64,000 bases of DNA, from positions 6,490-70,489 of the forward strand of contig DASZDK010000089.1 of assembly GCA_035942035.1 (NCBI GenBank). Reading direction: 5' to 3'. The notes under the pieces are model-generated. The model saw only the letters and a list, made by a program, of their open reading frames with translations. It was not told the DNA's origin and did no database searches. Source of the stretch: Acidimicrobiales bacterium (GTDB lineage: Bacteria > Actinomycetota > Acidimicrobiia > Acidimicrobiales > CADCSY01). Made by a program: the position numbers and the translations under genes. Shown here in pieces: positions 15,587 to 62,913 of the stretch (position 1 is the first letter of the stretch; each line of letters opens with the position of its first letter).

Positions 15587-15596
15587 ACTTTTGCTC

Positions 15597-22686: not shown

Positions 22687-22797
22687 GCTGGGATCCTACG
22701 ATCGCCGCCGGCCCGGATCCCCACGGAGGATGGGGAGGCGGGCCTGGGTGTCGGCGGTAGGCGGTGCCAGCGGGCGCCCTGGCTACCATGGCCCCGA

Positions 22798-24264: not shown

Positions 24265-25862
24265 CCGAAGTGGCGGTCGAGGAGGCCGCCCACGAGAACC
24301 AGGCGCCGGCGCCCGAGCCCCCTGCCCGGTCCGCCTGGGGTTCCCCGCTGCTCGTCGTGGCCGGGTTGCTCGGCCTCACGGTGGTCTCCCTCCTGCTCAG
24401 CCTGCGGGGGATGGGCGTCTCGCTGTGGCTCGACGAGGGCCTCTCGGTCGGCATCGCCTCGCACCCGTGGGCGGACATCCCCGGGCTGCTGGCCCAGGAC
24501 GGCTCGCCGCCGCTGTACTACCTGGTCCTCCACGCCTGGATGGAGGCGTTCGGACGTTCGGAGGAGGCGGTCCGGGCCCTGTCCCTGGTCTTCGCACTGG
24601 TCACGGTGCCGGTGGCCTTCTGGCTCACCGGGACGCTGTTCGACCGCCGGACGGCATGGGTCGCCGCCACGCTCGCCGCCACCAGCGGCTACCTCACCTA
24701 CTACGGCCGGGAGGCACGGATGTACAGCCTCCTGGTGCTGCTGGCGCTGGTGGCCGTGGTCGCCTTCGTGCACGTCGTGGTCCTCGGCCGGCGCCGGTGG
24801 CTGCCCCTGCTGGTGGCGGGCCTGGCCCTGGCTCTCTACACCCACAACTGGGCCCTGTACCTGGTGGCCGGCCTGGGGGTGGCCACGGTGTGGCTGCTCG
24901 TGACCGGCGCTGACCGCCGGCGGGTCCTCGTCGACGCGGCGGTCCCCTTCGGCGCCCTCGCCCTCCTCTACGCCCCGTGGGTCCCGACCCTGTTGTTCCA
25001 GGCCGCCCACACCAGCGCTCCGTGGTCCCAGCGCCCGGACCCCGCCTACCTGCTGGGCGCGCTGGGATCGGTGCTGAGCGACCAGCGGGTGGTGGTCGTC
25101 CTCGTGCTGGTGGCCCTGCCGGCGCTGTTCCAGGCGGTTCGGCGGGGCGGGGAGCAGGCCACGGCCTCGGCCGTCATCGCCCTCGCCGTGGTGCTGGTGG
25201 CGACGCTGCTCGCCGCCTGGGCTTCCTCGCAGCTCCGCCCGGCGTGGGCGAGCCGCTACTTCGGGCTGTTCCTGCCCCCCCTGCTCCTGCTCGCCGCCCT
25301 AGGCCTTGCCCGGGCGGGACGGCGGGGGCTGGTCGCCCTGGCGCTGATCGTGGGCTTGTGGGCCCAGCCGGTGGCCGCCTCCTTCGTCCCGGACCGCCAG
25401 CTGCCGCAGAAGAGCAACGTCCGGCGGGCCACCTCGGTGGTCGCCCCCGTCCTGGAGGACGGTGACCTGGTGGTCTCGGCGCACATGGAGCACGTGCCGC
25501 TGCTCCACTACTACCTCGGGCCGGAACTGCGCTACGCCGACCCGACCGGACTGGTCGCCGACCCCGCCATCGCCGACTGGCGGGACGCCGTGGAGCGCCT
25601 GGCGTCGGCTGAGCCGCGCACCGGGCTCCTCCCGCTGGTGGCCGAGCTCGACGCCGGCGGCCACGTGGCCCTGGTGTGCCCCCGCTACGACGTCGACCCG
25701 GACGATCTCGAGTGGTTCCAGATCATGGATCGCAATTGCGCGGCGTGGCGCACCGCCCTCGACACCGAACCGTCGCTCGAGCCACTGCTGGGGCCGGTTG
25801 CCCCGCCGCCGCTGAAGTCGCCGGGCGCCTCCATCTCGGTCCGGGTCTACGAGAAGACTTGA
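24258..25862 (+). CDS. Polytopic GT-C glycosyltransferase, GT39/ArnT-like (paralogue of 54490..56295)
   Basis: GTG at 24258 overlaps the LCP stop. First-loop acidic motif LWLDEGLSVGIASHP, then DGSPPLYYLVLHAW and REARMYSL. Many TM segments. Confidence 0.8.
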   Translation: MLTEVAVEEAAHENQAPAPEPPARSAWGSPLLVVAGLLGLTVVSLLLSLRGMGVSLWLDEGLSVGIASHPWADIPGLLAQDGSPPLYYLVLHAWMEAFGRSEEAVRALSLVFALVTVPVAFWLTGTLFDRRTAWVAATLAATSGYLTYYGREARMYSLLVLLALVAVVAFVHVVVLGRRRWLPLLVAGLALALYTHNWALYLVAGLGVATVWLLVTGADRRRVLVDAAVPFGALALLYAPWVPTLLFQAAHTSAPWSQRPDPAYLLGALGSVLSDQRVVVVLVLVALPALFQAVRRGGEQATASAVIALAVVLVATLLAAWASSQLRPAWASRYFGLFLPPLLLLAALGLARAGRRGLVALALIVGLWAQPVAASFVPDRQLPQKSNVRRATSVVAPVLEDGDLVVSAHMEHVPLLHYYLGPELRYADPTGLVADPAIADWRDAVERLASAEPRTGLLPLVAELDAGGHVALVCPRYDVDPDDLEWFQIMDRNCAAWRTALDTEPSLEPLLGPVAPPPLKSPGASISVRVYEKT

Positions 25863-27248: not shown

Positions 27249-28192
27249 CCGGGCGCCGCCGGCGGGTGGTGGTGACGGGCGGCGCCGGGTTCCTCGGGTC
27301 CCACCTGTGCGACCGCCTGCTCGAGCGAGGGGACGAGGTGGTGGCCATCGACAACCTGGCCACCGGTCGGCTGGCCAACATCGAGCACCTCTTCGGTCTC
27401 GACGGCTTCACCTTCGTCCGCCACGACGTGAGCCAGTACGTCTGGGTCCCGGGGCCGGTCGACGCCGTGTTGCACTTCGCCAGCCCGGCGTCGCCCAAGG
27501 ACTACCTGGAGCTTCCCATCCAGACCCTGAAGGTGGGCAGCCTCGGCACCCACAACACCTTGGGCTTGGCCAAGGACAAAGGTGCCCGGTACCTGCTGGC
27601 GTCGACCAGCGAGGTCTACGGCGACCCCCAGGTGCACCCCCAACCGGAGGAGTACTGGGGACACGTCAACCCGGTGGGCCCCCGAGGGGTCTACGACGAG
27701 GCGAAGCGCTTCGGCGAGGCCATGGCCATGGCCTACCACCGGGCCCACGGCCTCGATGTCCGGATCGCCCGCATCTTCAACACGTACGGCCCCCGGATGC
27801 GTCCCGCCGACGGGCGGGTGATCGCCAACTTCCTGGTCCAGGCGCTCGAGGGCAAGCCGATCACCGTCTACGGCGACGGCACCCAGACTCGCAGCTTCTG
27901 CTACGTGGACGACGAGGTCGGAGGGCTGCTGGCCCTGCTCGACTCCGATTACGTGGGCCCGGTCAACATCGGCAACCCCACGGAGCACACCGTCACCGAC
28001 CTGGCCGAGGTGGTGCTGGAGGTGACCGGCTCGGCGTCGTCGCTGGTGTTCGAGCCCCTCCCCGTCGACGACCCGACGCAGCGCCGGCCCGACATCACCC
28101 TGGCCCACCGGGTGCTGGGCTGGGAGCCCGAGGTGTCGTTGCGGGAGGGCCTGGCCCGCACCGCCGGCTGGCTGGCGGCGACGGCGACGTGA
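27245..28192 (+). CDS. uxs: UDP-glucuronate decarboxylase (UDP-xylose synthase family)
   Basis: GTGA overlap with ugd. [57 protein letters not shown] and [11 protein letters not shown]. Confidence 0.9.
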
Positions 28193-29070
28193 CGGGCGGG
28201 AGCCCCCCTGCTCGGGTGGCGGCGGTGATCGTCAGCTACAACGTCCGCGACCTCCTGCTGCAGTGCATCGCCAGCCTCCGTGCCGACGGCGTGGACGACA
28301 TCGTGGTGGTCGACAACCACTCCCACGACGGCTCGGCGGAGGCGGTCCGCCGGCACGATCCCGGCGTCGACGTGCTCGGATTGGCCGTCAACCTCGGCTT
28401 CGGCGCCGGCGCCAACCGCGGAGTGGCGCGGACCACGACGCCCTACGTCGCCGTCATGAACCCCGACGTGGTCGTGCAACCGGGCTCCACCAAGGCTCTG
28501 GTCGAGGCGCTCGAGCGCGAGCCGCAGCTGGCGGTGGTGGGCCCGCGGATCGAGACGCCGGACGGCAGCCTGTACCCCTCGGCCCGCACCTTCCCCGACC
28601 TCGTCGACGCCGCCGGCCATGCCTTCCTCCACTTCGTGTGGCCGGGCAACCGCTTCAGCCGCCGGTACCGAATGCTCGACTGGGACCACGACGCGCCCGC
28701 TCACGTCGACTGGGTGGCGGGGACCCACCTCGTCGCCCGCCGCAGCGCCTGGGACGAGGTCGGAGGCTTCGACGAGGGCTTCTTCATGTACCTCGAGGAC
28801 GTCGACCTGTGCTGGCGGCTGCGCCAGAAGGGGTGGCGCACGGGCTACGAGCCGGCCGCGGTGGTGACCCACGCCATCGGCCGCTCCACCGACCAGACCC
28901 CCTACCGCATGATCGCCGCCCACCACCGGTCGCTGTGGCGTTACGCCACCAAGACCGCCACCGGGTGCCGCCGGCTGCTGCTGCCGGTCATCGCCGTGGC
29001 CCTGGCCGTGCGCACGGGGTTGGCGTGGGTGCAGCGGGCCGCTCGCGGCCGCCCTCACGCCGCCGTCTGA
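28189..29070 (+). CDS. GT2 glycosyltransferase, WbbL-like (rhamnosyltransferase-type)
   Basis: GTGA overlap with uxs. [30 protein letters not shown] and [13 protein letters not shown]. Confidence 0.85.
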
Positions 29071-29143
29071 CCCTCCCACCGGTCGAGGTGGCTCCAGGAC
29101 CGGTCGCGGCGCCCCGCGTGGAGGTCGTTACAGTGGGCCGGCC

Positions 29144-29929
29144 ATGGGCAGGGCATCCTCCAACAAAAAGGTGTCGCGAGCAGCGCGAGCGGCGGGCCGG
29201 GACAAGAAGAAGTCGCGTAACCTCGCCTGGCCGCTGGCCCTGGCCGCCGTGGTCGTCCTCGGGTCGGTGCTGATCTTCCTGTCCCGGCCCAAGCAGTCGG
29301 AGGCCGAGCCCCCCAAGCTCGGTGACCACTGGCACGTGGCCTACGGCGTGTACGTGTGCGACGGGTTCCTTCCGCCCCTGGCCGACGTCCAGCGGGACGC
29401 CAGCGGCATCCACACCCACCAGGACGGCCTGATCCACATCCATCCCTTCAGCACCCGCTACACCGGTGACGGCGCCAACCTCGAGGCCTTCGCCCGCCAG
29501 GTCGGGCTCGAGCTCAGCGACGACGGGATCTCGTTGCCTGGTGGTGACGCCCTGCGCAACGGCGACGACTGCGGGGGCGAGCCCGGCGTGGTCCAGGTCA
29601 AGGTATGGGACGGCGTCGCCGATGCCGAAGGGCGGCTGGTCGAGAGCGACGTCGCCCAGTTCGCTCTGCCGGAGGGCTCGCTGGTGACCATCGCCTTCGC
29701 ACCCGAGGGCGCCGACATCCCCAAGCCGCCGTCGGCCGGGACGGTCCCCGGCGACGTGCCCGGCGGGGCGCCGGTGGGTGGAGGCCCCGCGGCCGGGAGC
29801 CAGGCGCCGGCCCCTCCTGACGGCGACGCAGCCGAGGGCGAGGGCGACGAGCAGGAAGAGGGCTCCCGGGGGGACACCCCGGAGGCCGACACCCCCGAGG
29901 GCGACACCACCGCCACGACGTCCCCGTGA
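29144..29929 (+). CDS. Membrane-anchored hypothetical protein with His-rich motif set
   Basis: Basic N-terminus plus one TM (WPLALAAVVVLGSVLIFL). DHWHVAYGVYVC...GIHTHQDGLIHIHPF. Acidic Pro/Gly-rich C-terminal tail. Confidence 0.65.
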   Translation: MGRASSNKKVSRAARAAGRDKKKSRNLAWPLALAAVVVLGSVLIFLSRPKQSEAEPPKLGDHWHVAYGVYVCDGFLPPLADVQRDASGIHTHQDGLIHIHPFSTRYTGDGANLEAFARQVGLELSDDGISLPGGDALRNGDDCGGEPGVVQVKVWDGVADAEGRLVESDVAQFALPEGSLVTIAFAPEGADIPKPPSAGTVPGDVPGGAPVGGGPAAGSQAPAPPDGDAAEGEGDEQEEGSRGDTPEADTPEGDTTATTSP

Positions 29930-30933
29930 GGGCCGTCGTCCTCGTCGGCGGCTTCGGGACCCGCCTCCGCCCGCTCACGCTGTCCACGCCCAAACAGATG
30001 CTGCCGGTGGCGGGCAGGCCGATGATCGAGTGGGTCGTGGCCCACCTCGCCGCCCACGGGGTCGACGAGGTGGTGTTGTCGCTCGGCTACCGCCCCGACG
30101 CCTTCCGTCGGGCCTACCCCGACGCCACCTGCGCCGGTGTCCGCCTGGTGTACGCCGTCGAGCCGGAGCCGCTGGACACTGCCGGCGCCATCCGCTTCGC
30201 CGCCGGCGCGGCCGGCATCGACGAGCGCTTCCTGGTGGCCAACGGCGACGTGCTCACCGACATCGACCTCAGCGCCCTCATGGAGTTCCACGCGCGGGTC
30301 GGCGCCTCCGGCACCCTTCAACTGACCCCGGTCGAGGACCCGTCCTCGTTCGGCGTGGTGGCCACCGACGACGACGGACGGGTGCGGGCGTTCGTCGAGA
30401 AGCCGGCGCCCGGGGAGGCGCCCTCCAGCCTGATCAGCGCCGGCTTCTACGTGCTCGAGCCCGAGGTGCTCGACCGCATCCCCGAGGGCGGGCGGGTCAA
30501 CGTCGAGCGGGAGGTCTTCCCCGGCATGGTCGGCGACGGGGTGCTGTGGGCCCGGGCCGAGCAGGCGTGGTGGATCGACGTGGGCACGCCCGACCGCTAC
30601 CTGCAGGCCTCGCTCGACCTCCTCGACCGTGAGCCGCCGCCCTCGGTGGTGCGTAGCGTCGACGCCATGGTCGCCACCAGCGCCGTCGTGCGCCGTTCGG
30701 CGATCGGCCCCGGCGCCAGGGTGGGGCCACGGGCCGTGGTGGAGGACTCGGTGGTGTTCGCGCGCGGCGTCGTAGAATCCGACGCGGTGGTGCGCAGGTC
30801 GGTCGTGGGGTCTGCGGCGGTGGTCGGGCGGGGCGCGGTGGTGCGCGACGTGTCGGTGCTGGGCAACGGCACCGAGGTGGCCGAAGGCGCCGAGCTCGCC
30901 GGGGTGCTGGTCCCCGGGCCCGAATCGTGGTGA
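29926..30933 (+). CDS. Sugar-1-phosphate nucleotidyltransferase, probable mannose-1-phosphate guanylyltransferase
   Basis: GTGA overlap with the upstream gene. VLVGGFGTRLRPLT signature and a C-terminal left-handed beta-helix-like repeat region. It sits next to a WbbL-like GT, as in mycobacterial manB/wbbL synteny. Confidence 0.88.
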   Translation: MRAVVLVGGFGTRLRPLTLSTPKQMLPVAGRPMIEWVVAHLAAHGVDEVVLSLGYRPDAFRRAYPDATCAGVRLVYAVEPEPLDTAGAIRFAAGAAGIDERFLVANGDVLTDIDLSALMEFHARVGASGTLQLTPVEDPSSFGVVATDDDGRVRAFVEKPAPGEAPSSLISAGFYVLEPEVLDRIPEGGRVNVEREVFPGMVGDGVLWARAEQAWWIDVGTPDRYLQASLDLLDREPPPSVVRSVDAMVATSAVVRRSAIGPGARVGPRAVVEDSVVFARGVVESDAVVRRSVVGSAAVVGRGAVVRDVSVLGNGTEVAEGAELAGVLVPGPESW

Positions 30934-32002: not shown

Positions 32003-34216
32003 CTACCGAACGAGCTCGACGGGGCGCAGCGTGACCTCGCCGGGGGCGCCCTCCATGGCGAACACGTCGACGGTGTTGGCGCCCGGGCGGAGCAATGACT
32101 CGGGCACCAGCACTGCGAATCGGGTCGACCAGACGGTCAAGTGTGCCTCGAGACTGCCCCAGCCGCCGATCACGCCATTGACCGCCACCACGACTCGCCG
32201 TAGCTCCGTGTCGGCTTCTTCCACCTCACCGGACACGTAGACGGGCAGGATAGGCGCCTGGAGATCCACGTCGTCGTACTGCTCCGGGTCGACGAGGCGA
32301 GCCTTCCAGTCGGCCGGTGGACCCTGGGGAAGTTCGACGACCGGTGTGCCGGTGAACTCGACGTGCGGCGGCAGGCGGTACAGGGCGAGGGGATCGTCGC
32401 TAGGGACCGCTGACGCCGGTTGCGCGGCGAGCATGTTGGCGAGCCCCTCGACCGCGTCGATGGTCGCGTACGCCTTGCCGTCGTCCGGCTCGATGGTGCT
32501 GTGCTCGCTTGGGACGAACCGCTTGTCGTCAGCGTGTCGAAGCGCGGGGTTCAACAGAGAACGGCCGTCGACCTCCCAGCCCATCCCGATGCCGGTGGCG
32601 TCGGCGATGGTCGGGACCAGATCGACGATCTCGGTGTTCACGTCAGTGATCCGGCCTTCGACCTGGCCTGGGGCCTTGATCAACAGGGGCACCCACAGGA
32701 GCTCGTGAGCGTTGTTCCGCGAGACACCTCGCCAGAACTCCTCCTCCTGGAACGAGAGGCCATGGTCAGCGACGACTATGACATAGGAGTCGTCGTAGCG
32801 ATCGAGTTCAGCCAAGCGGTCGAGCATCCTCCCTACCTGCTTGTCGGTGTACTGCAGCTGCAGCAGGTGCCGCTGTCGCCCGAGCTGACCCGCAGTCTCG
32901 GTGGTCCACCGCGGGCCCAGGAGGCCGAGCGGATGTGGGTCGCCGGTGTGACTTTGGCCGTCGGGAAGGACCTGCCAGGGCACGTGGGGCAGAAGCAGGT
33001 GGGCGAAGTCCAATTGGGGCCGGCCGTCGTCGGGCTGGAGTGACTCCAGGAAATCGTCGAGGTGCTCGAACCGGCCGGCGATCAGCCCGAGAAGCGCCTC
33101 AAAGGAGGTTTCCCCGACCCCGTCGCCCAAGGACGTCTGAGCCGGGGACGTCACGATTCCTGTCCATAGATCCCAGGCCAGGGACAGGAGGCGTCCGATG
33201 GCCGTGGGATCGGAGGCCTGGTCACACCGCGACGGTGGGCACAGCGACGTGATCGCCTCGTGAACGTTGAGGTCATGGCTGTCGCCGAGGAGGGTGAAGA
33301 GGTTCTCGACGTAGTCATCTCGCACCGCCTTGGCCTCGGTATGGATGCGCCCGGTCAGGAGGGAGGGGACTGCGAGGTCGGTGAAGGTGGCCACCGTCGT
33401 GGTGTTCCGGTAGAACGTGGCGTCGTCAGCGAACCGGGCGAGGTTGGGGAAAAGCTCGGCGTCGATTCGACCGTCGCCGTCGAGCAGCGACATGGTGGGC
33501 AACTCGTCGAGCACCAGGACCACGAACGACGGCTGGCCCGCCGCCGCCGCCTCCGGCGACGCCGGCGCCGGAGGGGATGCCGGTGAGGGCGTGAAGATCA
33601 GGTTGGCAACCGGCGAGAACGCCAGGAAGACCACGAGGAACGCAGCCGGTGCGGCCGACAAGAACACCAGGTACAGCCGGGCGGCCTCGAACCGTTCGTA
33701 GAGGAAGGCGGCGGCGAGCCCGGCAGCCACCGCCGCGACGAGCACCCACGCCGGTCCCGGCAGCAGGGGGCGGGCGAACCACGAGATGAACAGGCCCAGA
33801 AGAAGACCGACAGCTGCCGATTGGCCCACCCGCCGCGCCCGGCCACCGACCAGACCGGTCGCCGCCGCCAGCGCCCACACTGCCAGCGCCGGCAGCACCG
33901 CAACGCCGATGCCGAACATCACGATGGTGCGTAGGGAGGCGTGGGTGGCGACGAAGGTCTCCGGTGAGTCTCCGAAGGACCCCAGCACGGGCTGCGCCAC
34001 GGCGAAGCCGCTCACCGCCAGGATCTCGAGGAAGTAGCGCCCTTCGCGTCGCCACCACGGCCGGCCCGGCCGGCCCGGTGAACGATTCGTCGATGCCCGT
34101 GGCTGCGGCGGCCGCAGTGGTGGTGTCGCAGGCCCGGGGTCGTCGAGGACCACGACGCCGACGACGACTGCGATGGAAACGGCGACGATGAGGAGGACGA
34201 CGATGACCGTGAACAT
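32003..34216 (-). CDS. Membrane-anchored sulfatase-like (alkaline phosphatase superfamily) transferase, LtaS/EptA-like architecture
   Basis: About 6 N-terminal TM segments. Then VVLVLDELPTMSL (metal/nucleophile region), TFTDLAVPSLLTG and VVADHGLSF. Confidence 0.8.
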   Translation of the reverse strand: MFTVIVVLLIVAVSIAVVVGVVVLDDPGPATPPLRPPQPRASTNRSPGRPGRPWWRREGRYFLEILAVSGFAVAQPVLGSFGDSPETFVATHASLRTIVMFGIGVAVLPALAVWALAAATGLVGGRARRVGQSAAVGLLLGLFISWFARPLLPGPAWVLVAAVAAGLAAAFLYERFEAARLYLVFLSAAPAAFLVVFLAFSPVANLIFTPSPASPPAPASPEAAAAGQPSFVVLVLDELPTMSLLDGDGRIDAELFPNLARFADDATFYRNTTTVATFTDLAVPSLLTGRIHTEAKAVRDDYVENLFTLLGDSHDLNVHEAITSLCPPSRCDQASDPTAIGRLLSLAWDLWTGIVTSPAQTSLGDGVGETSFEALLGLIAGRFEHLDDFLESLQPDDGRPQLDFAHLLLPHVPWQVLPDGQSHTGDPHPLGLLGPRWTTETAGQLGRQRHLLQLQYTDKQVGRMLDRLAELDRYDDSYVIVVADHGLSFQEEEFWRGVSRNNAHELLWVPLLIKAPGQVEGRITDVNTEIVDLVPTIADATGIGMGWEVDGRSLLNPALRHADDKRFVPSEHSTIEPDDGKAYATIDAVEGLANMLAAQPASAVPSDDPLALYRLPPHVEFTGTPVVELPQGPPADWKARLVDPEQYDDVDLQAPILPVYVSGEVEEADTELRRVVVAVNGVIGGWGSLEAHLTVWSTRFAVLVPESLLRPGANTVDVFAMEGAPGEVTLRPVELVR

Positions 34217-34308: not shown

Positions 34309-35700
34309 CTAGGGCTCGCACAGGTACAGGGTGCGTGTCCCGCTCGGCACCACCTGGCGCTCTGCGATGTGGAATCGGGCGGCCAGGAGCTCTTCGAAGT
34401 GGTCGATGCGGTAGTCGTCGAACAGCCCGGCCGGCTTGTTGGACAGCAGCCGACGGGTCATGGGATCGGGGCGGTCCACGAACTCGACCACCAAGCGGGC
34501 TCCGAACTCGTGCAGCCAGTCGACGACCTCGGGCAGGGGCACGTTGGCGGTGATGGCGAGGTGGTGGACCAGGGCCAGGCTCAGCACGACGTCGGGTCGC
34601 ACCCGCGCCGCGAACGGGGCCCGCTCCCGGTTTCGCCACCCGAGCCCCGGCGACGGGTCGGACAGGTCCATCACCAACGGGAGGACGTTGGCGACGCCGT
34701 CGTGACGGAGCCGTCGGTACAGACCGTCGATCACGGCCTCGTCGCCGTCGACCGCCACCACCTGCTGGGCGTAACTGGCGGCGAGCATCGAATAGGCTCC
34801 GTCGTTGGCGCCGAGGTCGAGGACGCACCGTGACGGCCGGGCCGCCAGCGCCGCTTCCACGAAGGCGCGCTTGGCAGCGGCGTCGTCGTCGGTGTAGGAG
34901 CAGGTGTCGCGGTAGTCGGACCACGCCGTGCGGGAGCGCTTGACCTCGAGGCGACGCACCAGCTTGAGGGTCTTGGCCACGGTGGCCTTGGCCAACTCCG
35001 TCCCGAAGCCGGCTCGGCCCAGCTCGGCCTTGACGCTCTCGGAGCTGGAGGTGACCCGTCGCTCGGCCACGCTGTGGAGGTACACGTGGCGGAAGACTCC
35101 CCGCCTGAAGCGGCGCAGGCCCCCGAACATCCCCCGCACGTCGACCGGCTGGAGGCCGTCGAGGCTGCCGCGCAACAGGCCCTGGTAGGCGATGCGCAGG
35201 TGCGCCTGGATGAGCAGCGGGAACAGGAAGGTCTGGCAGAACTGGCGGTACCCCGGCCACGGGCCGCTGGCCGCCTCGAACGAGCCGAGGTCGACGAACA
35301 CCGGCCGGCTGCCCACGAACTGGACGTTGTAGGCGGTGCCGTCCTTGGTGGTGATGTTCTCCTCGAGGGCGGCGAGCAGCACCTCGAGGTGGCAGATGGC
35401 GGCCTCTCGCAGCATGGCAAAGGGCCACTCGAAGGGGTAGGAGACCACCGGGATGCGCTCGTGCTCGAGCACCAGTGACCACGATTGGCCCCGGGGCCCC
35501 GGCGGCGCTTCGGCCTGGTACGGAGCGGTGCGCACGATCTGGCCCTGGTCGACCAAGCGGGGGAAGAAGTCGGTGCCGGCCAGCTGGCGCCAGTCGGAAG
35601 CTCCCTGCTCGCTCAGTCCCCGCAGCACCCGCCCGTCGGCGTAGAAGACGGCCGAATCGGGGTCGCGGAACGACGCCGGCTCCGGGAGGACACTACCCAC
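34309..35700 (-). CDS. Two-domain protein: N-terminal protein-kinase-like domain fused to a C-terminal class I SAM-dependent methyltransferase
   Basis: C-terminus: VLDLGANDGAYS (SAM motif I), VVAVDGD and LALVHHL. N-terminus: TKDGTAYN (D-x4-N) followed 17 residues later by VDLGSF (DFG-like). Start GTG 35700 lies 13 nt after the upstream small-ORF stop; ATG 35793 is an alternative. Confidence 0.75.
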   Translation of the reverse strand: MGSVLPEPASFRDPDSAVFYADGRVLRGLSEQGASDWRQLAGTDFFPRLVDQGQIVRTAPYQAEAPPGPRGQSWSLVLEHERIPVVSYPFEWPFAMLREAAICHLEVLLAALEENITTKDGTAYNVQFVGSRPVFVDLGSFEAASGPWPGYRQFCQTFLFPLLIQAHLRIAYQGLLRGSLDGLQPVDVRGMFGGLRRFRRGVFRHVYLHSVAERRVTSSSESVKAELGRAGFGTELAKATVAKTLKLVRRLEVKRSRTAWSDYRDTCSYTDDDAAAKRAFVEAALAARPSRCVLDLGANDGAYSMLAASYAQQVVAVDGDEAVIDGLYRRLRHDGVANVLPLVMDLSDPSPGLGWRNRERAPFAARVRPDVVLSLALVHHLAITANVPLPEVVDWLHEFGARLVVEFVDRPDPMTRRLLSNKPAGLFDDYRIDHFEELLAARFHIAERQVVPSGTRTLYLCEP

Positions 35701-35713
35701 TCCGGACGCTGCG

Positions 35714-35932
35714 TCAGGCCCGCGGTTCGGCTGGCGCGTCGGCGCGCTCCGACACTGTCGAGTCGTGGTCGCCTGGCCCCTGCGCGGCCGCACGTTGCGC
35801 CTCAGCGCGCTGCTTCGGTGAGAAGAAGCCGACGATGCGCCGCCAGCTCATGCGCAATACCACACCGAGACCGGCGGCGCCGGCCACCACCGCTGAAACG
35901 ATCAGGCTGCCGGTGCCGGCGTCGAGATACAT
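35714..35932 (-). CDS. Small membrane protein (72 aa) heading the methyltransferase/sulfatase-like operon
   Basis: ATG at 35932. MYLDAGTGSLIVSAVVAGAAGLGVVLRMSWRRIVGFF gives one TM plus a basic stretch. The N-terminal motif resembles mini-proteins I recall from polysaccharide loci (recollection only). Confidence 0.4.
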   Translation of the reverse strand: MYLDAGTGSLIVSAVVAGAAGLGVVLRMSWRRIVGFFSPKQRAEAQRAAAQGPGDHDSTVSERADAPAEPRA

Positions 35933-36164
35933 CAGTTGCTGTTTCAAAAGGGTTCTCCTACGAGCGGTCGTGGTCCGTCCGGCGACCATTGCCGGAACGT
36001 CACATGACCACGAACTGTAGCCACCAGGGCGGCTGCGGCCAAGAAATGGGCACGCCCAGCACCGGCCCGAGCACAGCGCGTGGAGGCAGCGTCACCGCCG
36101 CCCCCCTCCCCCGCAGGCGAGTGCGCGGCCTCGCGGAGGCGGGAAGGATGGGGGCTAACGTCGC

Positions 36165-36929
36165 TTGCCAGTGAAGAACGCGTTGGGTGAGCCACAGTCC
36201 GTCCTCGTCCTCGGAGGAACCTCCGAGATCGCACTGGCCACGGTGCGGACCATGGCCCAGCGGCGGCTGCAGTCGGTAGTGCTCGCCGGTCGCAACACCG
36301 ACGCGCTGGCCCTGGCCGCTGACGAGCTGCGCGGCCTCGGGCTGGCGGTCGAGATGGAGCCGTTCGACGCCCTGGACACCGACAGCCACGCCGGCCTGGT
36401 CGAGCGGGTGTTCGATCGTCACGGTGACATCGACGTCGCCCTGGTCGCCTTCGGCGTCCTCGGCGATCAGGACGAGGCCCTGCGTTCCGTGGCCGAGGCC
36501 CGGCGCATCGTGGCCACCAACTACCTCGGGGCGGTGACCACGTGCCTGCCCCTCGCCCGACGCATGACCGCCCAGGGCCACGGCACCATCGTGGTGCTGT
36601 CGTCGGTGGCGGGGGAGCGGGCCCGCAAGGCCAACTTCGTCTACGGCTCCTCCAAGGCCGGTGTCGACGCCTTCGCCCAGGGGTTGGGCGACTCGCTGGT
36701 CGGCACGGGCGTCGGCGTGCTGGTGGTCCGCCCCGGCTTCGTGCGCACCAAGATGACCGCTGGTCGGGAGGAGGTCCCGCTGTCGACCACGCCCGAGGCC
36801 GTCGCCGACGCCATCGTGTCCGGGCTGGCCAAGGGCGCCGAGGTGGTGCACGTGCCGGCGGCGCTGCGTTACGTCTTCACGGTCGTGCGTCACCTCCCCC
36901 GGCCGTTGTTCCGAAAGATCCCGATGTGA
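36165..36929 (+). CDS. dprE2: Decaprenylphospho-2-keto-ribose reductase-type SDR
   Basis: [20 protein letters not shown] catalytic motif and [11 protein letters not shown]. It closely resembles the mycobacterial DprE2 N-terminus (..PQ.VL.LGGTSEI). The start is TTG 36165 or GTG 36171. Confidence 0.88.
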
Positions 36930-36939
36930 CGGGCGGGGG

Positions 36940-38373
36940 ATGTCGGTGTCGACACCTCGTTCGGCTCCTCTTGTCCGTGACCACGTTCGCCGTCGGCGGC
37001 GTCTACCAGCCGTGACCACGGTGGCGCGCCGGCCCCTCAGCGGGTGGGGCCGCACGGCCGTTACGACCTCGGTCGTGGTGGCCCCCCGCAACGCCGGCCT
37101 GGTGGCCGATGCGCTGGCCGCGGGTCCGCCGCGGGGGGCGATCGCCCGGGGGCTGGGGCGCAGCTACGGCGATTCCGCCCAAAACGCCGGTGGCGTGGTG
37201 CTCGACTGCACCTCGCTGGCGGGCATCCGGGCGCTCGATCTGGAGGGGGGCCTGGTCGTCGTCGAGGCGGGCATCAGCCTCGACACCCTGATACGCCGGC
37301 TCCTTCCTCTGGGGTGGTTCGTGCCCGTGAGCCCGGGGACACGGTTCGTCACCGTGGGGGGCGCCGTGGCCAGCGACATCCACGGCAAGAACCACCACGT
37401 CGACGGCAGCTTCTGCCGCTGGGTCGAGTCGCTCAGCCTCCAGCTCCCGAACGGGCACCGGCGGCGGATCGGCCCCGACGGGCCCTCGGGGGAGCTGTTC
37501 TGGGCCACGGCCGGCGGGATGGGGCTCACCGGCGTGGTGCTCGAGGCCGACGTGCGCCTGCACCCGGTCACGACCGCCTCGATGGTGGTCGACACCGAGC
37601 GGGCCAGCGACCTCGACGACTGCATGGCCCGCATGGAGTCGGGCGACGACCGCTACCGCTACTCGGAGGCGTGGATCGACTGCACGGCCACAGGCCCCGA
37701 GCTGGGGCGGTCCGTCCTTACCCGGGGCGACCACGCCGGCGTGGACGACCTGCCCCCCAAGCAGCGGGAGACGCCGTTGCACTTCGCGCCCGCCCAGCGG
37801 CTGTCGGCGCCGCCGTGGGTGCCGCCCGGCCTGCTCAACCGCGCCACGGTGACTGCCTTCAACGAGCTGTGGTTCCGCAAGGCCCCGCGCCGGCGCGAGG
37901 GCGAGCTCCAGGGCATCGCCTCGTTCTTCCACCCCCTCGACGGCGTGGGCGGGTGGAACCGCTTCTACGGCCCCCGAGGGTTGCTCCAGCACCAGTGCGT
38001 GGTCCCCTTCGGGGCCGAGGCGACGCTGCGGCGCATCGTCGAGCGCTTGGCCGCGTCCGGGGCGGCGTCGTCCCGGGCCGTGCTCAAGCGCTTCGGCGAG
38101 GCCGATCCCGGACCCCTGTCGTTCCCCATGTCGGGGTGGACGCTGGCCCTCGACCTCCCCGCCGGCGCCGCCGGCCTCGGGCCCCTGCTCGACGACGTTG
38201 ACGAGATGGTGGTGGAGGCCGGCGGGCGGCTGTACCTGGCCAAGGACTCCCGCATGCGCCCCGAGCTCCTCGGCGCCATGTACCCCCGGCTCGGCGAGTG
38301 GCGGGAGGTCCGGGCGCGGGTGGACCCCCACGGGGTGTTGCGCTCCGACCAGTCGCGACGCCTGGGGCTCTGA
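36940..38373 (+). CDS. dprE1: Decaprenylphosphoryl-beta-D-ribose 2'-oxidase-type FAD flavoenzyme
   Basis: [21 protein letters not shown] (FAD-binding PCMH domain), [16 protein letters not shown] and a C-terminal alditol-oxidase-like domain. ATG 36940 or GTG 37012. Confidence 0.9.
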
Positions 38374-39380: not shown

Positions 39381-40330
39381 GCCAAAGCGGCCATCGCCGC
39401 CCGGGCCAAGGCGGCGGCCTCGTCGGGCCCGTGCATCACCGATGGCGTGACCACGCACCTCATACCTGCGGCCTCGACCTCGGGCGCCAGCGCGGCGTCG
39501 GCCTCGTCGACCACCAGGGTGCCGGCCACGTCGGCCCACAGCCGGGCCACACCCACCACCGAAGCCTCGTGACCGAGCTCGGCCATGAGGCGGGCGGCCG
39601 GGCCCTTCAGGGCGGCGCCGGCGACGATGGGGGAGACGGCGACCACCTGCCGGCGCCGGGCCCGGAGCCGGTCGCGCACCCCCGCCACGGCCAGCACCGG
39701 GGCGATCGAGACGATGGGGTTGGAGGGGGCGATCACCACGCCGTCGGCTCCGTCGAAGGCGGCGAGCACACCGGGGGCGGGGCGGGCCTGGTCGATCCCG
39801 GCGAAGCGTACCGACGAGGCGGCGACGTCGTGGCGGCGCTGGACGAAGTACTCCTGGAAGCCGATCTCGCCCTCGCCGGCGACCGTGACGCGGGTCTGCA
39901 CCGGGTCCTCGGTCATGGGCACCAGCGTCGCCTCCACGCCCCAGGCGGCAACCACCTCGGCGGTCACCACGGCCAAGCCGGCGCCCTCACCCAGCCGGGC
40001 GGTGCGGTAGAGGTGGGTGGCCAGGTCCCGGTCACCCAGGCGAAACCACGTCAGGCCGGCGGCCGACCCGCTCGGTGCCACCGCAGCGAAGCGCTCCAGG
40101 GCTTCCATGACGTGCCAGGTCTCCCCGGCCAGCCCCCACCCCGTGCGGGGATGGACGGCGCCGGCCAGGGTGTAGGTGACCGTGTCGAGGTCCGGGCAGA
40201 CGCGCAGCCCGTGCAGGGTGACGTCGTCGGCGGTGTTGACCACGGCGGTGACGGAGGTGGGCGGAGTCACCCGGACCAGGCCGGAGAGGAAGCGGGCGGC
40301 GCCCACGCCACCGGCGAGCACGGTGATCAC
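39377..40330 (-). CDS. cofD: 2-phospho-L-lactate (or EPPG) transferase for F420 biosynthesis
   Basis: GTGA overlap with the upstream GT4 stop. VLAGGVGAARFLSGL, LGDRDLATHL and APSNPIVSIAPVL. Confidence 0.9.
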   Translation of the reverse strand: MITVLAGGVGAARFLSGLVRVTPPTSVTAVVNTADDVTLHGLRVCPDLDTVTYTLAGAVHPRTGWGLAGETWHVMEALERFAAVAPSGSAAGLTWFRLGDRDLATHLYRTARLGEGAGLAVVTAEVVAAWGVEATLVPMTEDPVQTRVTVAGEGEIGFQEYFVQRRHDVAASSVRFAGIDQARPAPGVLAAFDGADGVVIAPSNPIVSIAPVLAVAGVRDRLRARRRQVVAVSPIVAGAALKGPAARLMAELGHEASVVGVARLWADVAGTLVVDEADAALAPEVEAAGMRCVVTPSVMHGPDEAAALARAAMAALA

Positions 40331-41460
40331 CGGGCGGCGCTCACGGCCCTCCGGTAGGCCTCGACGTGCCGGCGGGCGCCACGGTCCCAGCTGTACTCGG
40401 CCGCCACGCGCGGGCCCTGCTCGCGCAGCCGGTCGATCTCGCTGCCGCCGGCGAGGGCCGCTTCGGTGGCCTCGGCCAGGGCCTCGTCGTCGCCGGGCGG
40501 CACGAGCAGCGCCGCCCCCCCGGTCACGTCCTCCATGGCCGAGCCGCTGGTGGTGACCAGCGCCGCCCCGCACGCCAGCGCCTCGAGGGCGGGAAGCCCG
40601 AAGCCCTCCTCGAGGGACGGGTAGACGACCACCGCCGCCTGGCGGAACAGGGCGGGGACGACCTCGTCTGTGGTGTACCCGAGCTCGACGATGCGGTCGG
40701 CCACGTTGCTCATGGCCACGGCGGCGTGGATGGGCCCGACACCCCACCCGGGGGTGCCGGCCAGCACCAACTGGAGGTCGGGGTGGACCGGCGCCAGGTG
40801 GCCGAAGGCCCGCACCAGTGCCGGGACGTTCTTGCGGGGCTCGAGCGTGCCGGTGAACGCCAGGAACGGCGGCCGCACCCCGAGGCTGGCCAGCAGCTCG
40901 AGGTCGTGATCGGGCGGGGCGGGACGGAAGCGGTCGTGGTCGACGCCGTGAGGGATGACCTCGACGGGGGAGGTCGGAGCCAGCACAGCGTCGAGCCGAC
41001 GGGCGGTGTGCTGGCTGACGCAGACGAGGAGGTCGGCCTGCTGGGCGCTGATGCGGATCATGCGCCGGAAGTAGGCGAGCTTGGCCCGCTCGTGCCACTC
41101 GGGATGGTCGAAGAAGGTGAGGTCGTGAATGGTCACCACGGTGGGCAGGTCAGCCCGCACCGGCATGGTGTAGTGCGGCCCGTGCCACAGGTCGCCGCCC
41201 AGCCGCCGGGCCAGGGCCGGAGCCCGCGTCTGCTCCCACAGCAGTCGTGCGGGCCGGCGGGCGGGGACCTCGGCGTGGACCTCGGCGCCGGGTGCCAGCC
41301 GGCGCCAGCGGGCGGCGTCGCCGGTGGCGGCGACCAGGCCCAGCTCGATCTCGCCGGCGGCGGCCAGTGCCTCCACCGTCTGGCGCACGTAGACGCCCGC
41401 CCCGGCCGGTTGGGCGGGGATGGCGGAGACGTCGAGGGTGACCCGGAGCCGGTCGTTCAT
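40327..41460 (-). CDS. GT4 (GT-B fold) glycosyltransferase, mannosyltransferase-like
   Basis: FTGTLEPRKN and the EX7E-type motif PSLEEGFGLPALEALACG. 4-nt overlap with the upstream gene. Confidence 0.88.
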   Translation of the reverse strand: MNDRLRVTLDVSAIPAQPAGAGVYVRQTVEALAAAGEIELGLVAATGDAARWRRLAPGAEVHAEVPARRPARLLWEQTRAPALARRLGGDLWHGPHYTMPVRADLPTVVTIHDLTFFDHPEWHERAKLAYFRRMIRISAQQADLLVCVSQHTARRLDAVLAPTSPVEVIPHGVDHDRFRPAPPDHDLELLASLGVRPPFLAFTGTLEPRKNVPALVRAFGHLAPVHPDLQLVLAGTPGWGVGPIHAAVAMSNVADRIVELGYTTDEVVPALFRQAAVVVYPSLEEGFGLPALEALACGAALVTTSGSAMEDVTGGAALLVPPGDDEALAEATEAALAGGSEIDRLREQGPRVAAEYSWDRGARRHVEAYRRAVSAAR

Positions 41461-42530
41461 TCCCGCCTCGACGCCGCCGAGGCATAGGCGGCGGCGTGGG
41501 CCCGGGCGCTGGCCTCCCAGGAGAAGCCGGCGGCGCGCCGGCGTCCGGCCGCCACCATCCGCTCACGGTGGTCGGGGTCGGAGAGGATGCGCTCGAGGGC
41601 GCCGGCCAGGGCTTCGACGTCGCCCACCGGCACCAGCTCGGCGGCTCCGCCGGTCACCTCGGGCAGGCAGGCGGCGTCGGTGGTGACGACCGGGCAGCCC
41701 CTGGTCATGGCCTCCAGCACGGGCAGGCCGAAGCCCTCGTAGCGACTGGGCAGGGCAAGGGCCACGGCGGCACGGTACAGGGCGTCGAGTTGGGCGTCGT
41801 CGACCGAGCCGAGGGGTACGACGCCGGGCGCCGACAGCTCGAGCGGCGGTCCCCACCCGGCGGGTCCGGCCAGGACCAGGCCCAGGTCGGGAGCGGCGGC
41901 TCGCAGGGCGGCGTGGGCGTCGAGCAAGTCGCTTACCCCCTTGCGCGGCTCGAGGGTCCCCACGAACAGTACGAAGGGAACGTCGACCTTCAGACGCCAC
42001 AGCTGAGCGGCCGTGACGCCGGCGTCGGGGGCCGCCGGCGTCTCGACGCCGTGGTGGGCGACGTGGATCCGCTCGGGCTCGAACCCCTCGTCGGCCAGCT
42101 CCTGGCGGCCGAAGGCGGTGGGCACGACGACGACGGCCGCCTCACGCCGCGCCACCGCCAGGCCCCGCCGGTGGAAGGAGACGCCCCGGGGCGTGAGGTG
42201 CTCTGGTTGGCGGAGGAAGACCAGGTCGTGGACGGTGACCACCAGCGGTCGCCGACCGGGTGGGGGCACGGCCAGGCTGGTGGCGTGCACCACGTCGGCG
42301 GGCACGCGAAGGGCCGGACGTCGCAGCCGGTGCCATGCCTCGTAGCGAAGCGATCCTCCCGGCCGTCCCAGGTCGACGTAGGTATCGACGCCCGGAGGAC
42401 GGACGCCGGCGGCGAACGCCACCGGATCGACGCCGACGCCGGGAAGGCCGGCCAGCAGGGCGCGGACGTAGCGCCCGATGCCTCCGGGCACGGGCTGGAG
42501 CAGCTGGCCGACGTGGACGGCGACACGCAC
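41457..42530 (-). CDS. GT4 (GT-B fold) glycosyltransferase
   Basis: GTG at 42530 (VRVAVHVGQLL). VGTLEPRKG and PSRYEGFGLPVLEAMTRGCP. Confidence 0.85.
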   Translation of the reverse strand: MRVAVHVGQLLQPVPGGIGRYVRALLAGLPGVGVDPVAFAAGVRPPGVDTYVDLGRPGGSLRYEAWHRLRRPALRVPADVVHATSLAVPPPGRRPLVVTVHDLVFLRQPEHLTPRGVSFHRRGLAVARREAAVVVVPTAFGRQELADEGFEPERIHVAHHGVETPAAPDAGVTAAQLWRLKVDVPFVLFVGTLEPRKGVSDLLDAHAALRAAAPDLGLVLAGPAGWGPPLELSAPGVVPLGSVDDAQLDALYRAAVALALPSRYEGFGLPVLEAMTRGCPVVTTDAACLPEVTGGAAELVPVGDVEALAGALERILSDPDHRERMVAAGRRRAAGFSWEASARAHAAAYASAASRRE

Positions 42531-42573
42531 GGGGCCACTGTCGCACGAAGCTCGCCCGCCGCGGCAGCCGGCG

Positions 42574-43710
42574 TCACGACCGCTCGGCCGCCGCCCGCCG
42601 GTAGAGGTCGACCATGGCGCCGGCGGTGTGCTCCCAGCGGTAGGCGCCCACCCGCCGCCGGCCCGCAGCCACGCGCTGGCGGCGCACGCCGGCATCGTCC
42701 AGGAGGGCGGCCAGCGCCTGGGCGAGGGCGTCCAGGTCGCCCACGGGCACCAGCGTGGCGGCGTCACCGAGCACCTCCGGGAGCGCCCCGGCGGTGGTGG
42801 CCACCACTGGCACACCGGCGGCCATGGCCTCGAGCGGGGGGAAGCCGAAGCCCTCGTAGCGGGATGGGTAGGCGACCACGGCGGCACCTCGCAGCAACCC
42901 GGCACGGGACTCGTCGTCCACCCACCCGAGTCGCACGATCCGGTCGCCGTGGCGCGACTCGGCCATGGCCCGCCGCAGCGCGTCGGCGCCCCACCCGTCG
43001 GGGCCGGCGAGCACCAGGCGCACATCGGGCCTGGACCCGGCCACGGCGTCGAAGGCCTGCACGAGGAGGGGGAGGTCCTTCCTCGGCTCCACCGTCCCCA
43101 GCGCCAGCAGGTAGCGCTCCGCCCCGGCCAGGCGCTGCCCGAGGCCGGCATCGGCGGGGGCGACCGCCGGCACGCCGGACGGGATGGCGATCACGCGCTC
43201 GGCATCGGCCCCGAGGTGCCGGACGACTTCCGCAGCCACGAACCGCGAGGGGGTGTGGACCCATGCGCCCCGGGCGATGGCTCGTCGCACTAGTGACGGG
43301 AAGGCCAGCGTGGCGGCGTCGCACAGCTCCGGGTAGTGCACCGGCGTCAGGTCGTGCACGGTGACCACTGACGCTGCGCCGGCGGCGGGGGGCACCACGA
43401 AGTTGGTGCCGTGGACGACGTCGACCGGCCCGGTCCACCACTCGATCGGAGGCCGGTTCCCTCGTTGCCACGCCATCCGCAGCGGGCGGGCGGCCATCGG
43501 CCGGCGGCTCGTGCGCACGCCGGCCGGCACTGCGCCGGCCAGGTACTGCCGCCCCCGCCAGGTGAGCCCGTAGGCGGTCACCTCCACCTCGGGCCGATCG
43601 GCGAGGTGCTCGAGGAGGGCAGCGGTGAAGGCGCCGATCCCCGTGCGGGCGCCCAGCAACGGGGTTGCGTCGACGGCGGCCCGTAGGGGAGCCGAACGCC
43701 CGCCGGCCAC
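42574..43710 (-). CDS. GT4 (GT-B fold) glycosyltransferase
   Basis: LGTVEPRKD and PSRYEGFGFPPLEAMAAGVP. Confidence 0.85.
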   Translation of the reverse strand: MAGGRSAPLRAAVDATPLLGARTGIGAFTAALLEHLADRPEVEVTAYGLTWRGRQYLAGAVPAGVRTSRRPMAARPLRMAWQRGNRPPIEWWTGPVDVVHGTNFVVPPAAGAASVVTVHDLTPVHYPELCDAATLAFPSLVRRAIARGAWVHTPSRFVAAEVVRHLGADAERVIAIPSGVPAVAPADAGLGQRLAGAERYLLALGTVEPRKDLPLLVQAFDAVAGSRPDVRLVLAGPDGWGADALRRAMAESRHGDRIVRLGWVDDESRAGLLRGAAVVAYPSRYEGFGFPPLEAMAAGVPVVATTAGALPEVLGDAATLVPVGDLDALAQALAALLDDAGVRRQRVAAGRRRVGAYRWEHTAGAMVDLYRRAAAERS

Positions 43711-54352: not shown

Positions 54353-54489
54353 GAAGGGCAACGCTATCGGTTGCCCTGCGAGGCCACCGTTGCGGCTTCG
54401 TCGCCATCGGCCTTGACGCTCAAGAGGCGCTGGAGACCAGGGCGGAACGGAGGCAGTGCTGACCAATGCGCGAGTCGGCCCGAGACGGC

Positions 54490-56295: not shown

Positions 56296-56556
56296 GGCCG
56301 GAAAGGTCGTTCGCGTGGGCGGTGGACAAGGCTGTCAGACGGACGTCTGTCGCGACACATCCTCGTGACGTTGGGCCTTGCGCGGTCCTCCCGGGGCTGG
56401 AAAGGACGAGTTGGCCGGACACGGGTGACGGCCCTGCACCACCGCCGCGGGGTGCCATTCCAGGCAGAACGTAGTTGATGCTCGGGAGCGGGACAAAACC
56501 CCGTTCGATCGGCAGTTCCCGGCTTGTGGTCTGCGCGGCGACGGTAGCGTCGCGGC

Positions 56557-62891: not shown

Positions 62892-62913
62892 CGTCGCCGT
62901 GGGGCTCGACAGG

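Follow-up and report, generated by a model that had tools for sequence, protein, structure and literature searches.

Does a protein that joins a kinase-like domain to a methyltransferase (MTase) cap a growing glycan chain in an actinobacterium, as WbdD does in Escherichia coli, or does it serve another kind of envelope modification? The question is raised by a gene at positions 34309-35700 (minus strand) of a 64,000-nucleotide stretch of DNA from an Acidimicrobiales bacterium (GenBank assembly GCA_035942035.1, contig DASZDK010000089.1, positions 6,490 to 70,489). We call this whole stretch the window. The initial annotation of the window proposed that the gene encodes a WbdD-style terminator of a cell-wall glycopolymer, acting with an exporter of the Wzm/Wzt type. 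In our analysis, the protein is almost certainly an actinobacterial (Acidimicrobiia) member of the NoeA/Lani_1194 kinase-MTase family. Its gene stands in the middle of a mobile cassette of three genes, with a micro-protein gene upstream and a gene for a membrane enzyme of the alkaline phosphatase (AP) superfamily downstream. The cassette is probably best explained as an envelope-glycan decoration module of the NoeA family, not as a chain-length terminator tied to Wzm/Wzt.

The Gene and Its Family

The minus-strand open reading frame (ORF) shows the codon bias of a real gene, with a G+C content at third codon positions (GC3) of 0.91 in a window of roughly 71% G+C. Its longest form reaches position 35793 (494 aa). 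A start at GTG 35700, with a predicted product of 463 aa, fits better and was chosen because homologs are 463-470 aa long and a separate gene call in a 93%-identical relative also gives 463 aa. The gene and its parts are as follows.

34309..35700, minus strand: kinase-MTase assigned to the NoeA/Lani_1194 family, 463 aa (NoeA alignment, homolog count, full-length AlphaFold2 model)
34951..35700, minus strand: predicted atypical protein-kinase-like domain, residues ~1-250 (domain model and Foldseek)
35278..35346, minus strand: putative equivalents of the catalytic loop and the Mg loop, K119-D120-G-T-A-Y-N125 ... V-D137-L-G-S-F141 (invariant residues and secondary-structure order)
34312..34923, minus strand: class I S-adenosylmethionine (SAM)-dependent methyltransferase domain, residues ~260-463 (weak Pfam matches, Foldseek, conserved motif I)
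34798-34824, minus strand: MTase motif I, VLDLGANDG, residues 293-301

BLASTP aligns the protein with Ensifer NoeA from end to end, with 32% identity over 460 aa (E 2e-76) and with the Asp/Asn/Asp residues of the kinase-like domain matched. The family assignment is based on this alignment, on the kinase-like fold, on the invariant residues R27, D120, N125 and D137, which match those published for Lani_1194, and on the MTase fold with its motif I. More than 6,800 homologs are present in a 90%-clustered protein collection. Their usual name in the source is "class I SAM-dependent methyltransferase", and one is called "nodulation protein NoeA". Relatives are encoded in at least 599 species-representative genomes from many phyla, and tblastn with the kinase-MTase retrieves 65 plasmid records, every one with at least 80% coverage. 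The protein is a soluble cytoplasmic protein. A Nod-factor role for the window gene was considered and rejected, since the window contains no nod genes.

The Lani_1194 family was described computationally by Krysinska et al. in 2022, with Sinorhizobium NoeA as a member (PMC9758233). The N-terminal domain of Lani_1194 is atypical and kinase-like. Arg replaces K72 of protein kinase A (PKA) and the Glu of the ion pair is not identifiable, while the equivalents of D166, N171 and D184 are kept (PMC9758233). The C-terminal class I methyltransferase is retained in 94% of ~2,000 homologs, and the largest host group is the Micromonosporales (Actinobacteria) (PMC9758233). The kinase-like nature and the domain order, reversed relative to WbdD, are thus already published for this family, which the authors explicitly contrast with WbdD (PMC9758233). 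A literature search found no paper after Krysinska et al. 2022 that mentions Lani_1194.

Two Domains, Kinase-like Then Methyltransferase

The N-terminal half has no match in Pfam, NCBIfam or PDB sequence searches, and phmmer and profile searches against all PDB sequences, WbdD included, find no match to the kinase-like domain even at E <= 10. Since these searches are empty, the kinase likeness is seen through fold and motif alone. With the full-length AlphaFold2 model (pTM 0.83), Foldseek listed methyltransferases only, and a separate domain-only model was needed for the kinase fold. This model, built with a diverse alignment, has a pLDDT of 90 and a pTM of 0.88. Its top 50 Foldseek matches in the PDB are all protein-kinase-like folds, and 78 matches lie at E <= 1e-3. 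The matches include Ser/Thr and Tyr kinases, PknG, CK2, APH(2''), Rio2 and AceK, with TM-scores of 0.30-0.44 over ~145-170 aligned core columns.

The initial annotation had recognized a kinase-like spacing, D-x4-N followed by VDLGSF, and the residues stand where it had placed them. TKDGTAYN supplies D120 and N125 (+5), and VDLGSF supplies D137 (+17 from D120). Only eleven N-terminal residues never vary across 94 homologs with identities as low as 33%: S10, R27, E91, W92, D120, N125, D137, W148, L159, P161 and G182. D120, N125 and D137 are still invariant once Ensifer NoeA joins the alignment. Around these motifs, the predicted secondary structure runs from a long helix and a strand through the D-x4-N loop to two strands and then D-x-G, consistent with the kinase order alphaE-beta6-catalytic loop-beta7-beta8-DFG. 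R27, in the second strand, is the counterpart of the Arg that replaces PKA K72 in Lani_1194. The structural model and the conserved motif together confirm the N-terminal half as a putative protein-kinase-like domain of a remote, atypical kind. The N-terminal 250 residues alone retrieve 3,652 cluster representatives, which are mostly 460-480 aa long; given this length, the domain nearly always comes joined to the MTase.

The canonical ion pair of beta3 Lys and alphaC Glu is not formed in this domain. The invariant R27 occupies the beta3 position, and no equivalent of the alphaC Glu is identifiable; the invariant E91 precedes the long helix and lies outside any alphaC-like helix. These features bear on the nature of the reaction. 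The kinase-like domain might not be a phosphotransferase and might instead perform another nucleotide-dependent transfer, such as AMPylation or glutamylation, or act as a substrate-binding pseudokinase for the MTase. The exchange of Lys for Arg and the lack of an ion-pair Glu favor this alternative, as does the great distance of the domain from solved kinases that the empty profile search and the TM-scores indicate. SelO and SidJ are examples of kinase folds that support other chemistries. The Asp/Asn/Asp triad, however, is invariant across phyla. Such conservation speaks against a dead domain without separating phosphotransfer from other nucleotide chemistry. We consider the alternative quite unlikely and keep phosphotransfer as the proposed activity.

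The C-terminal half was read in the initial annotation as a class I methyltransferase from the motifs VLDLGANDG and VVAVDGD (residues 313-319), and this is confirmed. Matches to Pfam Methyltransf_25/23/12 have E-values of ~1e-3, below the curated cut-offs. For the full-length model, each of the 50 listed Foldseek matches carries a methyltransferase or SAM-dependent enzyme annotation, with class I accounting for nearly all of them (E ~1e-6, probability 1.0). D295 and G297 of motif I are invariant, and N299, G301, D318 and D320 are conserved in at least 90% of the sequences.

A Mobile Three-Gene Cassette

The neighborhood of the gene was compared in 81 loci, consisting of 80 loci from species-representative genomes and the Ensifer locus, over a range of +-10 kb. 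A second sample consisted of five close-relative loci with separate Pfam-labelled gene calls (L082-L086), one of which is the 93%-identical relative. The gene contexts outside the cassette differ completely among loci, which is why we call the cassette mobile. When the neighboring ORFs were clustered, no partner apart from the cassette genes occurred in more than 15 of the 81 loci. In the window, the two partners of the kinase-MTase are as follows.

35714..35947, minus strand: micro-protein gene (Lani_1193-like), 72-77 aa (translation, and a hidden Markov model (HMM) of homologous upstream mini-ORFs, E 4e-13)
32003..34216, minus strand: NoeB/Lani_1195-like membrane-anchored AP-superfamily enzyme, 737 aa (Pfam Sulfatase, E 2e-18)

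The same gene order, a 71-aa hypothetical protein followed by noeA and noeB, is found in Ensifer. In the published neighborhoods (n=816), Lani_1193 is present in 65% and Lani_1195/NoeB, which has an alkaline-phosphatase fold, in 38% (PMC9758233). Lani_1193 is a hypothetical protein of ~65 aa, and Lani_1195 matches EptA, YejM and MCR-1 (PMC9758233 supplement).

The window micro-protein has the sequence (MKQQL)MYLDAGTGSLIVSAVVAGAAGLGVVLRMSWRRIVGFF..., with one predicted transmembrane (TM) helix followed by a basic tail. It starts at TTG 35947 (AGGAGA at 35959-35954) or at ATG 35932, and its TGA stop (35716-35714) sits 13 nt ahead of the start of the kinase-MTase. Upstream sequence is available in 78 loci, and in 74 of them the HMM detects an adjacent micro-protein gene on the same strand; it also finds two divergent copies. 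All five close relatives have a separately called gene of this kind (60-101 aa). The copies are 50-100 aa long and share the motif A-Y-L-D-[PA]-G-[ST]-G-S, ahead of a hydrophobic helix and a basic K/R..W.R tail; of 80 copies, all but one have the Y and D, and all but two the final S. The window copy carries the DAG variant of the motif, not DPG. No Pfam or NCBIfam family matches the micro-protein, which corresponds to Lani_1193. Its presence in ~95% of loci here, compared with the published 65%, is probably explained by under-annotation of small genes.

Such constancy invites the idea that the micro-protein is the substrate. The kinase-like domain would phosphorylate the Ser/Thr of YLD(P/A)G(S/T)GS in the micro-protein, or another protein, the MTase would modify the product further, and the cassette would be a peptide-modification system. 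Near-universal co-occurrence, a spacing that suggests translational coupling, and conserved hydroxyl residues at two motif positions speak for it. However, by the positive-inside rule, the C-terminus, with its basic residues behind the TM helix, is predicted to be cytoplasmic, which would place the motif at or beyond the outer face of the membrane. Moreover, the whole peptide is conserved and not the leader alone, unlike typical precursors of modified peptides, and the cassette has no protease or export genes. A protein substrate is therefore highly improbable, and the micro-protein is treated below as an accessory to a glycan-modifying enzyme.

The downstream partner has ~5-6 hydrophobic TM segments before residue 211, followed by a soluble catalytic domain. 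A profile of 32 partner orthologs matches phosphonate monoester hydrolase (PMH, 3e-25), choline and aryl sulfatases, LtaS (2e-12) and YejM. D237 and H406 are invariant in these orthologs, and T279 and the pair D484-H485 each occur in 31 of the 32. T279 falls where PMH and the sulfatases have their formylglycine Cys, and no CxPxR motif is conserved among the 32 orthologs. The Thr at the nucleophile position, the Asp/His metal ligands and the N-terminal TM segments lead us to assign the partner, from its sequence, as a putative membrane-anchored Thr-nucleophile phosphoester enzyme of the LtaS/EptA type and not as a true sulfatase. Such an enzyme could work as a transferase or as a hydrolase; in the PDB its closest matches, PMH and sulfatases, are of the hydrolase kind. 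A formylglycine sulfatase based on CPPSR at residue 326 was rejected, because the Arg is not conserved and the motif is off the nucleophile position. Within this superficially formylglycine-like segment (CPPSRC, residues 326-331), C326 and C331 are nearly invariant. They look like a conserved disulfide pair, which also counted against a formylglycine site and would fit an extracytoplasmic location.

A partner homolog is found within the sampled range in 59 of the 81 loci. Downstream sequence of 2 kb or more is available in 69 loci; of these, 41 have the homolog as the next gene downstream in the same orientation, and 55 have it anywhere within +-10 kb. Four of the five close relatives have a Sulfatase-labelled partner gene. 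Two or three tandem AP-superfamily paralogs follow the kinase-MTase in six loci (L005, L057, L070, L071, L074 and L086), a pattern that suggests diversification of the outer-face enzyme beside a cytoplasmic enzyme kept as a single copy. In the locus of a 66%-identical relative (L063:10001-11372), sulfatase-fold paralogs lie on both flanks of the kinase-MTase. The match to the kinase-MTase itself is split there between different frames, with two pieces that overlap, and this points to a frameshift, a pseudogene or an assembly error.

The kinship of the partner also brings in the possibility of a phospho-alcohol head group. The kinase-like domain would phosphorylate an alcohol in the manner of an ethanolamine or choline kinase, the MTase would N-methylate it, and the AP partner would transfer the head group so made or remodelled to an envelope glycan. 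The partner resembles transferases of phospho-head groups (LtaS, and EptA/MCR-1 in the case of Lani_1195), and N-methyltransferases of phosphoethanolamine and phosphatidylethanolamine are among the structural matches of the MTase (Foldseek ranks 17 and 44, and the published Phyre2 result). The matches of class I MTases are non-specific, though, and the cassette has no gene for a cytidylyltransferase or a lipid synthase. Furthermore, the donors of head groups for known EptA/LtaS-type enzymes are phospholipids and not soluble phospho-alcohols. This pathway is very unlikely in our estimate, and we keep to modification of a glycan by the kinase-MTase itself.

Two further genes recur beside the cassette. 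A small stand-alone class I methyltransferase and a DPM1-like glycosyltransferase of family 2 (GT2) each occur in 13 of the 81 loci, upstream of the cassette and in divergent orientation, for the most part in Thermoleophilia and Solirubrobacterales. L067:5217-5960 and L045:8390-9571, both on the minus strand, are examples. The DPM1-like GT2 is of the polyprenyl-phosphate glycosyltransferase type.

The Exporter and the Proposed Chain Terminator

The initial annotation linked the gene to three glycosyltransferase genes of family 4 (GT4), a ManC-like gene and a Wzm/Wzt pair of the same window. These genes, and the dprE genes next to the cassette, are the following.

36165-36929, plus strand: dprE2 (NCBIfam DprE2 equivalog, 334 bits vs cut-off 250)
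36940-38373, plus strand: dprE1 (NCBIfam DprE1 equivalog, 615 bits vs cut-off 500)
40327-43710: three GT4 genes (Pfam)
29926-30933: nucleoside triphosphate (NTP)-transferase gene, closest to the Rv-type (mycobacterial-type) mannose-1-P guanylyltransferase, below cut-off
61683-63035, minus strand: Wzt with a Wzt_C module (Pfam Wzt_C, 87 bits vs cut-off 30.4, plus ABC_tran)
62914-63756, minus strand: Wzm (Pfam ABC2_membrane)

Wzm and Wzt were found by a Walker-A scan and confirmed by Pfam. A candidate pair at 14774-16760 was rejected, as it consists of SIR2 plus ThiF/rhodanese. The C-terminal extension of ~150 aa noted earlier in Wzt proves to be a genuine Wzt_C module. The other supposed members of a polymannose pathway stand in part. 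There are indeed three GT4 genes, but the family models do not assign them as mannosyltransferases, and the ManC-like gene is closest to a mannose-1-P guanylyltransferase but stays below the cut-off. The window Wzm/Wzt are closest to teichoic-acid and galactan exporters, again below those cut-offs.

Under the WbdD-style proposal, the GT4 enzymes would build a polymannose-like glycan, and the kinase-MTase would place a methyl-phosphate cap at its non-reducing end; the cap would stop polymerization and would be read by Wzt_C for export. Several observations agree with this. A kinase-like domain and an MTase are the same pair of activities as in WbdD, and a real Wzt_C module implies some terminal signal. 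The remaining unannotated ORFs have no kinase or MTase motifs, so that no other kinase or MTase, and no alternative terminator, is visible in the 64 kb. One locus of the 81, L063, has orthologous Wzm/Wzt genes ~8.5 kb from the cassette.

The exporter is nevertheless not linked to the cassette. In the window the two are 26 kb apart, with F420 ligase, amine-oxidase-like, SpoIID and amidase genes between them, and the upstream genes of the Wzm/Wzt operon run beyond the window end. Co-occurrence with the exporter had been named beforehand as a point on which the proposal would turn, and within the +-10 kb examined it is essentially absent. L063 is the sole locus of the 81 with Wzm/Wzt homologs within 10 kb, and near the cassettes of the five close relatives neither ABC2_membrane nor Wzt_C occurs. 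Any ABC ATPase lies within +-10 kb in at most 10 of the 81 loci, and no alignment reaches the Wzt_C region. Synteny with the window in the 93%-identical relative extends over the cassette, dprE2-dprE1 and the side with nucleoside diphosphate (NDP)-sugar and GT-C genes. The GT4 side is not syntenic even in this genome, which beyond dprE1 has PhoD, DsbA and sigma-factor genes where the window has F420 ligase and GT4.

The protein itself also argues against the proposal. Its predicted secondary structure has no coiled coil, C-terminal extension or long C-terminal helix and ends with the MTase at residue 463, and no recruitment region is present. WbdD lies outside the top 50 Foldseek matches of both models, and no sequence similarity to WbdD was found. 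NoeA, a full-length homolog, sits in a Nod-factor operon without Wzm/Wzt, and the constant partners of the family are the micro-protein and the AP-superfamily enzyme. The GT4 enzymes, moreover, are not assignable as mannosyltransferases. There is only a slim chance that the gene is a WbdD-style terminator, and the claim that it ends a cap-controlled pathway is not upheld. If such capping were true, quality control of Gram-negative O-antigens would extend to Gram-positive cell-wall polymers, but the link is not supported.

Other Glycan Genes of the Window

The genes dprE2 and dprE1 are divergent from the cassette. They are kept in the 93%-identical relative and are found in 0-1 of the 81 loci of the wider family. 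DprE2 and DprE1 make decaprenyl-phospho-arabinose. The window also holds a UDP-glucose dehydrogenase, epimerases, GT-C proteins (PMT_2 and DUF2142) and an LCP ligase. The regions at 22027-25862 (plus strand) and 46531-48156 (minus strand), with dprE2/dprE1 and Wzm/Wzt, are parts of a possible cell-wall glycan pathway, with GT-C-type proteins and the LCP ligase among the window genes. The combination of DprE2/DprE1, GT-C proteins, LCP ligase and galactan-exporter-like Wzm/Wzt looks like an arabinogalactan-like cell-wall pathway outside the Mycobacteriales. The Wzt of the mycobacterial galactan exporter is not known to carry a Wzt_C module, unlike the window Wzt.

Four large ORFs (orf45, orf53, orf55 and orf57), at 44952-46586 (minus strand) and 52478-58080 (both strands), have no Pfam match and 8-9 predicted TM helices each. 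Possibly they encode GT-C-type glycosyltransferases or polymerases, so far unclassified, that belong to the same cell-wall pathway; orf53, which failed the filter on GC3, is perhaps not a genuine gene. The region 27250-29900 was left unannotated by the GC3 and Pfam passes. It probably encodes a GT2 and an NAD-dependent epimerase, as does the syntenic region of the 93%-identical relative (L082:16768-18593).

Proposed Role of the Cassette

In the role that we favor, the cassette would decorate an envelope glycan. Its chemical steps, namely phosphorylation, methylation, tethering and the action of the outer-face enzyme, are put forward as possible rather than probable. At the cytoplasmic face, the kinase-like domain would transfer phosphate from ATP to a hydroxyl group of a membrane-associated envelope glycoconjugate. 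Methylation of that phosphate, or of a neighboring group, by the fused MTase would follow, and the two steps would have the same chemistry as those of WbdD. The micro-protein would tether or organize the soluble kinase-MTase at the membrane. After export of the substrate, the AP-superfamily partner would act on the resulting phosphoester at the outer face.

The target in this genome is likely a cell-wall glycopolymer or a lipid-linked precursor, given that the cassette lies in a region with DprE1/DprE2, GT-C enzymes, NDP-sugar enzymes and an LCP ligase. Some relatives also have a glycan context. L003 and L008 carry GT4 and NDP-sugar genes, L083 has AftB_C, GT2 and PMT_2, and L084 has GT-C_AftD. 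Arabinofuranosyltransferase-like genes thus lie near the cassette in L083 and L084. The contexts of other members are unrelated, so the target of the cassette may differ between lineages.

Several points weigh against this role. The cassettes of L085 and L086 are in contexts without glycan genes, and ~20-40% of loci have no adjacent AP-superfamily gene detectable at the threshold used. The kinase-like domain has no kinase similarity by sequence (a 33-sequence domain profile finds nothing in the PDB at E <= 10), and its TM-scores of 0.30-0.44 in the model-based comparison are modest. The change of Lys to Arg and the lack of an ion-pair Glu leave room for chemistry other than phosphotransfer. 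The substrate, the phosphoryl acceptor and the methyl acceptor are all inferred, and the tether role of the micro-protein is pure inference. A literature search found no biochemical characterization of NoeA, NoeB or any other family member.

A bolder form of the idea is that the three genes form one trans-membrane modification machine across many phyla, in which the micro-protein is the obligatory link, a methyl-phosphate or phosphoester is placed on a lipid-linked glycan, and the outer enzyme uses or edits the ester. As a whole this is rather unlikely. If true, the outer enzyme might form a phosphodiester linkage or strip an export tag, and the tag could be what the window Wzt_C reads. It would be a previously uncharacterized pathway of envelope decoration and would explain the 30-year-old host-range phenotype of NoeA/NoeB.

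Apart from mechanism, the analysis shows a widespread kinase-MTase family represented within a locus for cell-wall glycans. The cassette, too, is now more sharply defined, by a micro-protein in ~95% of loci and an AP-fold partner with a putative Thr nucleophile. These features are concrete handles for assigning a function to genes of the NoeA/NoeB type.

Comparison with Known Systems

A similar division of labor is known from the core of enterobacterial lipopolysaccharide (LPS). WaaP, a cytoplasmic sugar kinase with a kinase fold, makes a phospho-sugar, and EptC/CptA, a membrane-anchored AP-superfamily transferase, elaborates this product after export. The cassette may follow the same order of events, and the likeness is one of logic. 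In the LPS system the genes are separate, there is no MTase or micro-protein, and the donor and acceptor of the AP-superfamily partner are known.

Another bacterial fusion of a kinase-like domain and an MTase is the Lcin_0519 family, which is also predicted to modify envelope glycans (PMC9758233). Lcin_0519 proteins commonly have a coiled coil, their neighborhoods hold Wzm, Wzt and glycosyltransferase genes, and they are the published WbdD-like candidate family (PMC9758233). The window protein has no coiled coil and no Wzm/Wzt neighbors, which argues against membership in the Lcin_0519 family.

WbdD of E. coli O9a (PDB 4AZS family; PMC3482155) also combines a protein-kinase-like domain and a class I SAM MTase in one polypeptide. 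It is the sole characterized precedent for the action of a kinase and then an MTase on a glycan, with methyl-phosphate as the product. WbdD has 708 aa and consists of an N-terminal MTase, the kinase, and a C-terminal coiled-coil and membrane/WbdA-recruiting region (PMC3482155). The window protein has 463 aa and, as the initial annotation had observed, the reversed order, kinase-like domain first and MTase second. It has an Arg in place of the Lys, different conserved partners, and none of the coiled coil, trimerization or WbdA-recruiting region of WbdD. Unlike wbdD, its gene is not beside Wzm/Wzt or a polymerizing glycosyltransferase. By analogy, the window gene may share the chemistry of WbdD without belonging to the WbdD family or having its role.

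The closest systems are NoeA, of the nodL-noeA-noeB operon of Sinorhizobium/Ensifer, and Lani_1194 of Legionella anisa. They differ from the window in setting, a nod operon or a Legionella locus as compared with a cell-wall glycan region with DprE1/DprE2 and GT-C enzymes. No acetyltransferase of the NodL or OafA type adjoins the window gene, unlike in these systems, and the similarity of the window partner to NoeB is weak (E 7e-6). However, NoeA and Lani_1194 share with the window protein the order of the kinase-like domain and the MTase, the active-site pattern of Arg plus Asp/Asn/Asp, and the flanking genes, with a small hypothetical TM protein upstream and a membrane protein of the alkaline-phosphatase fold downstream.

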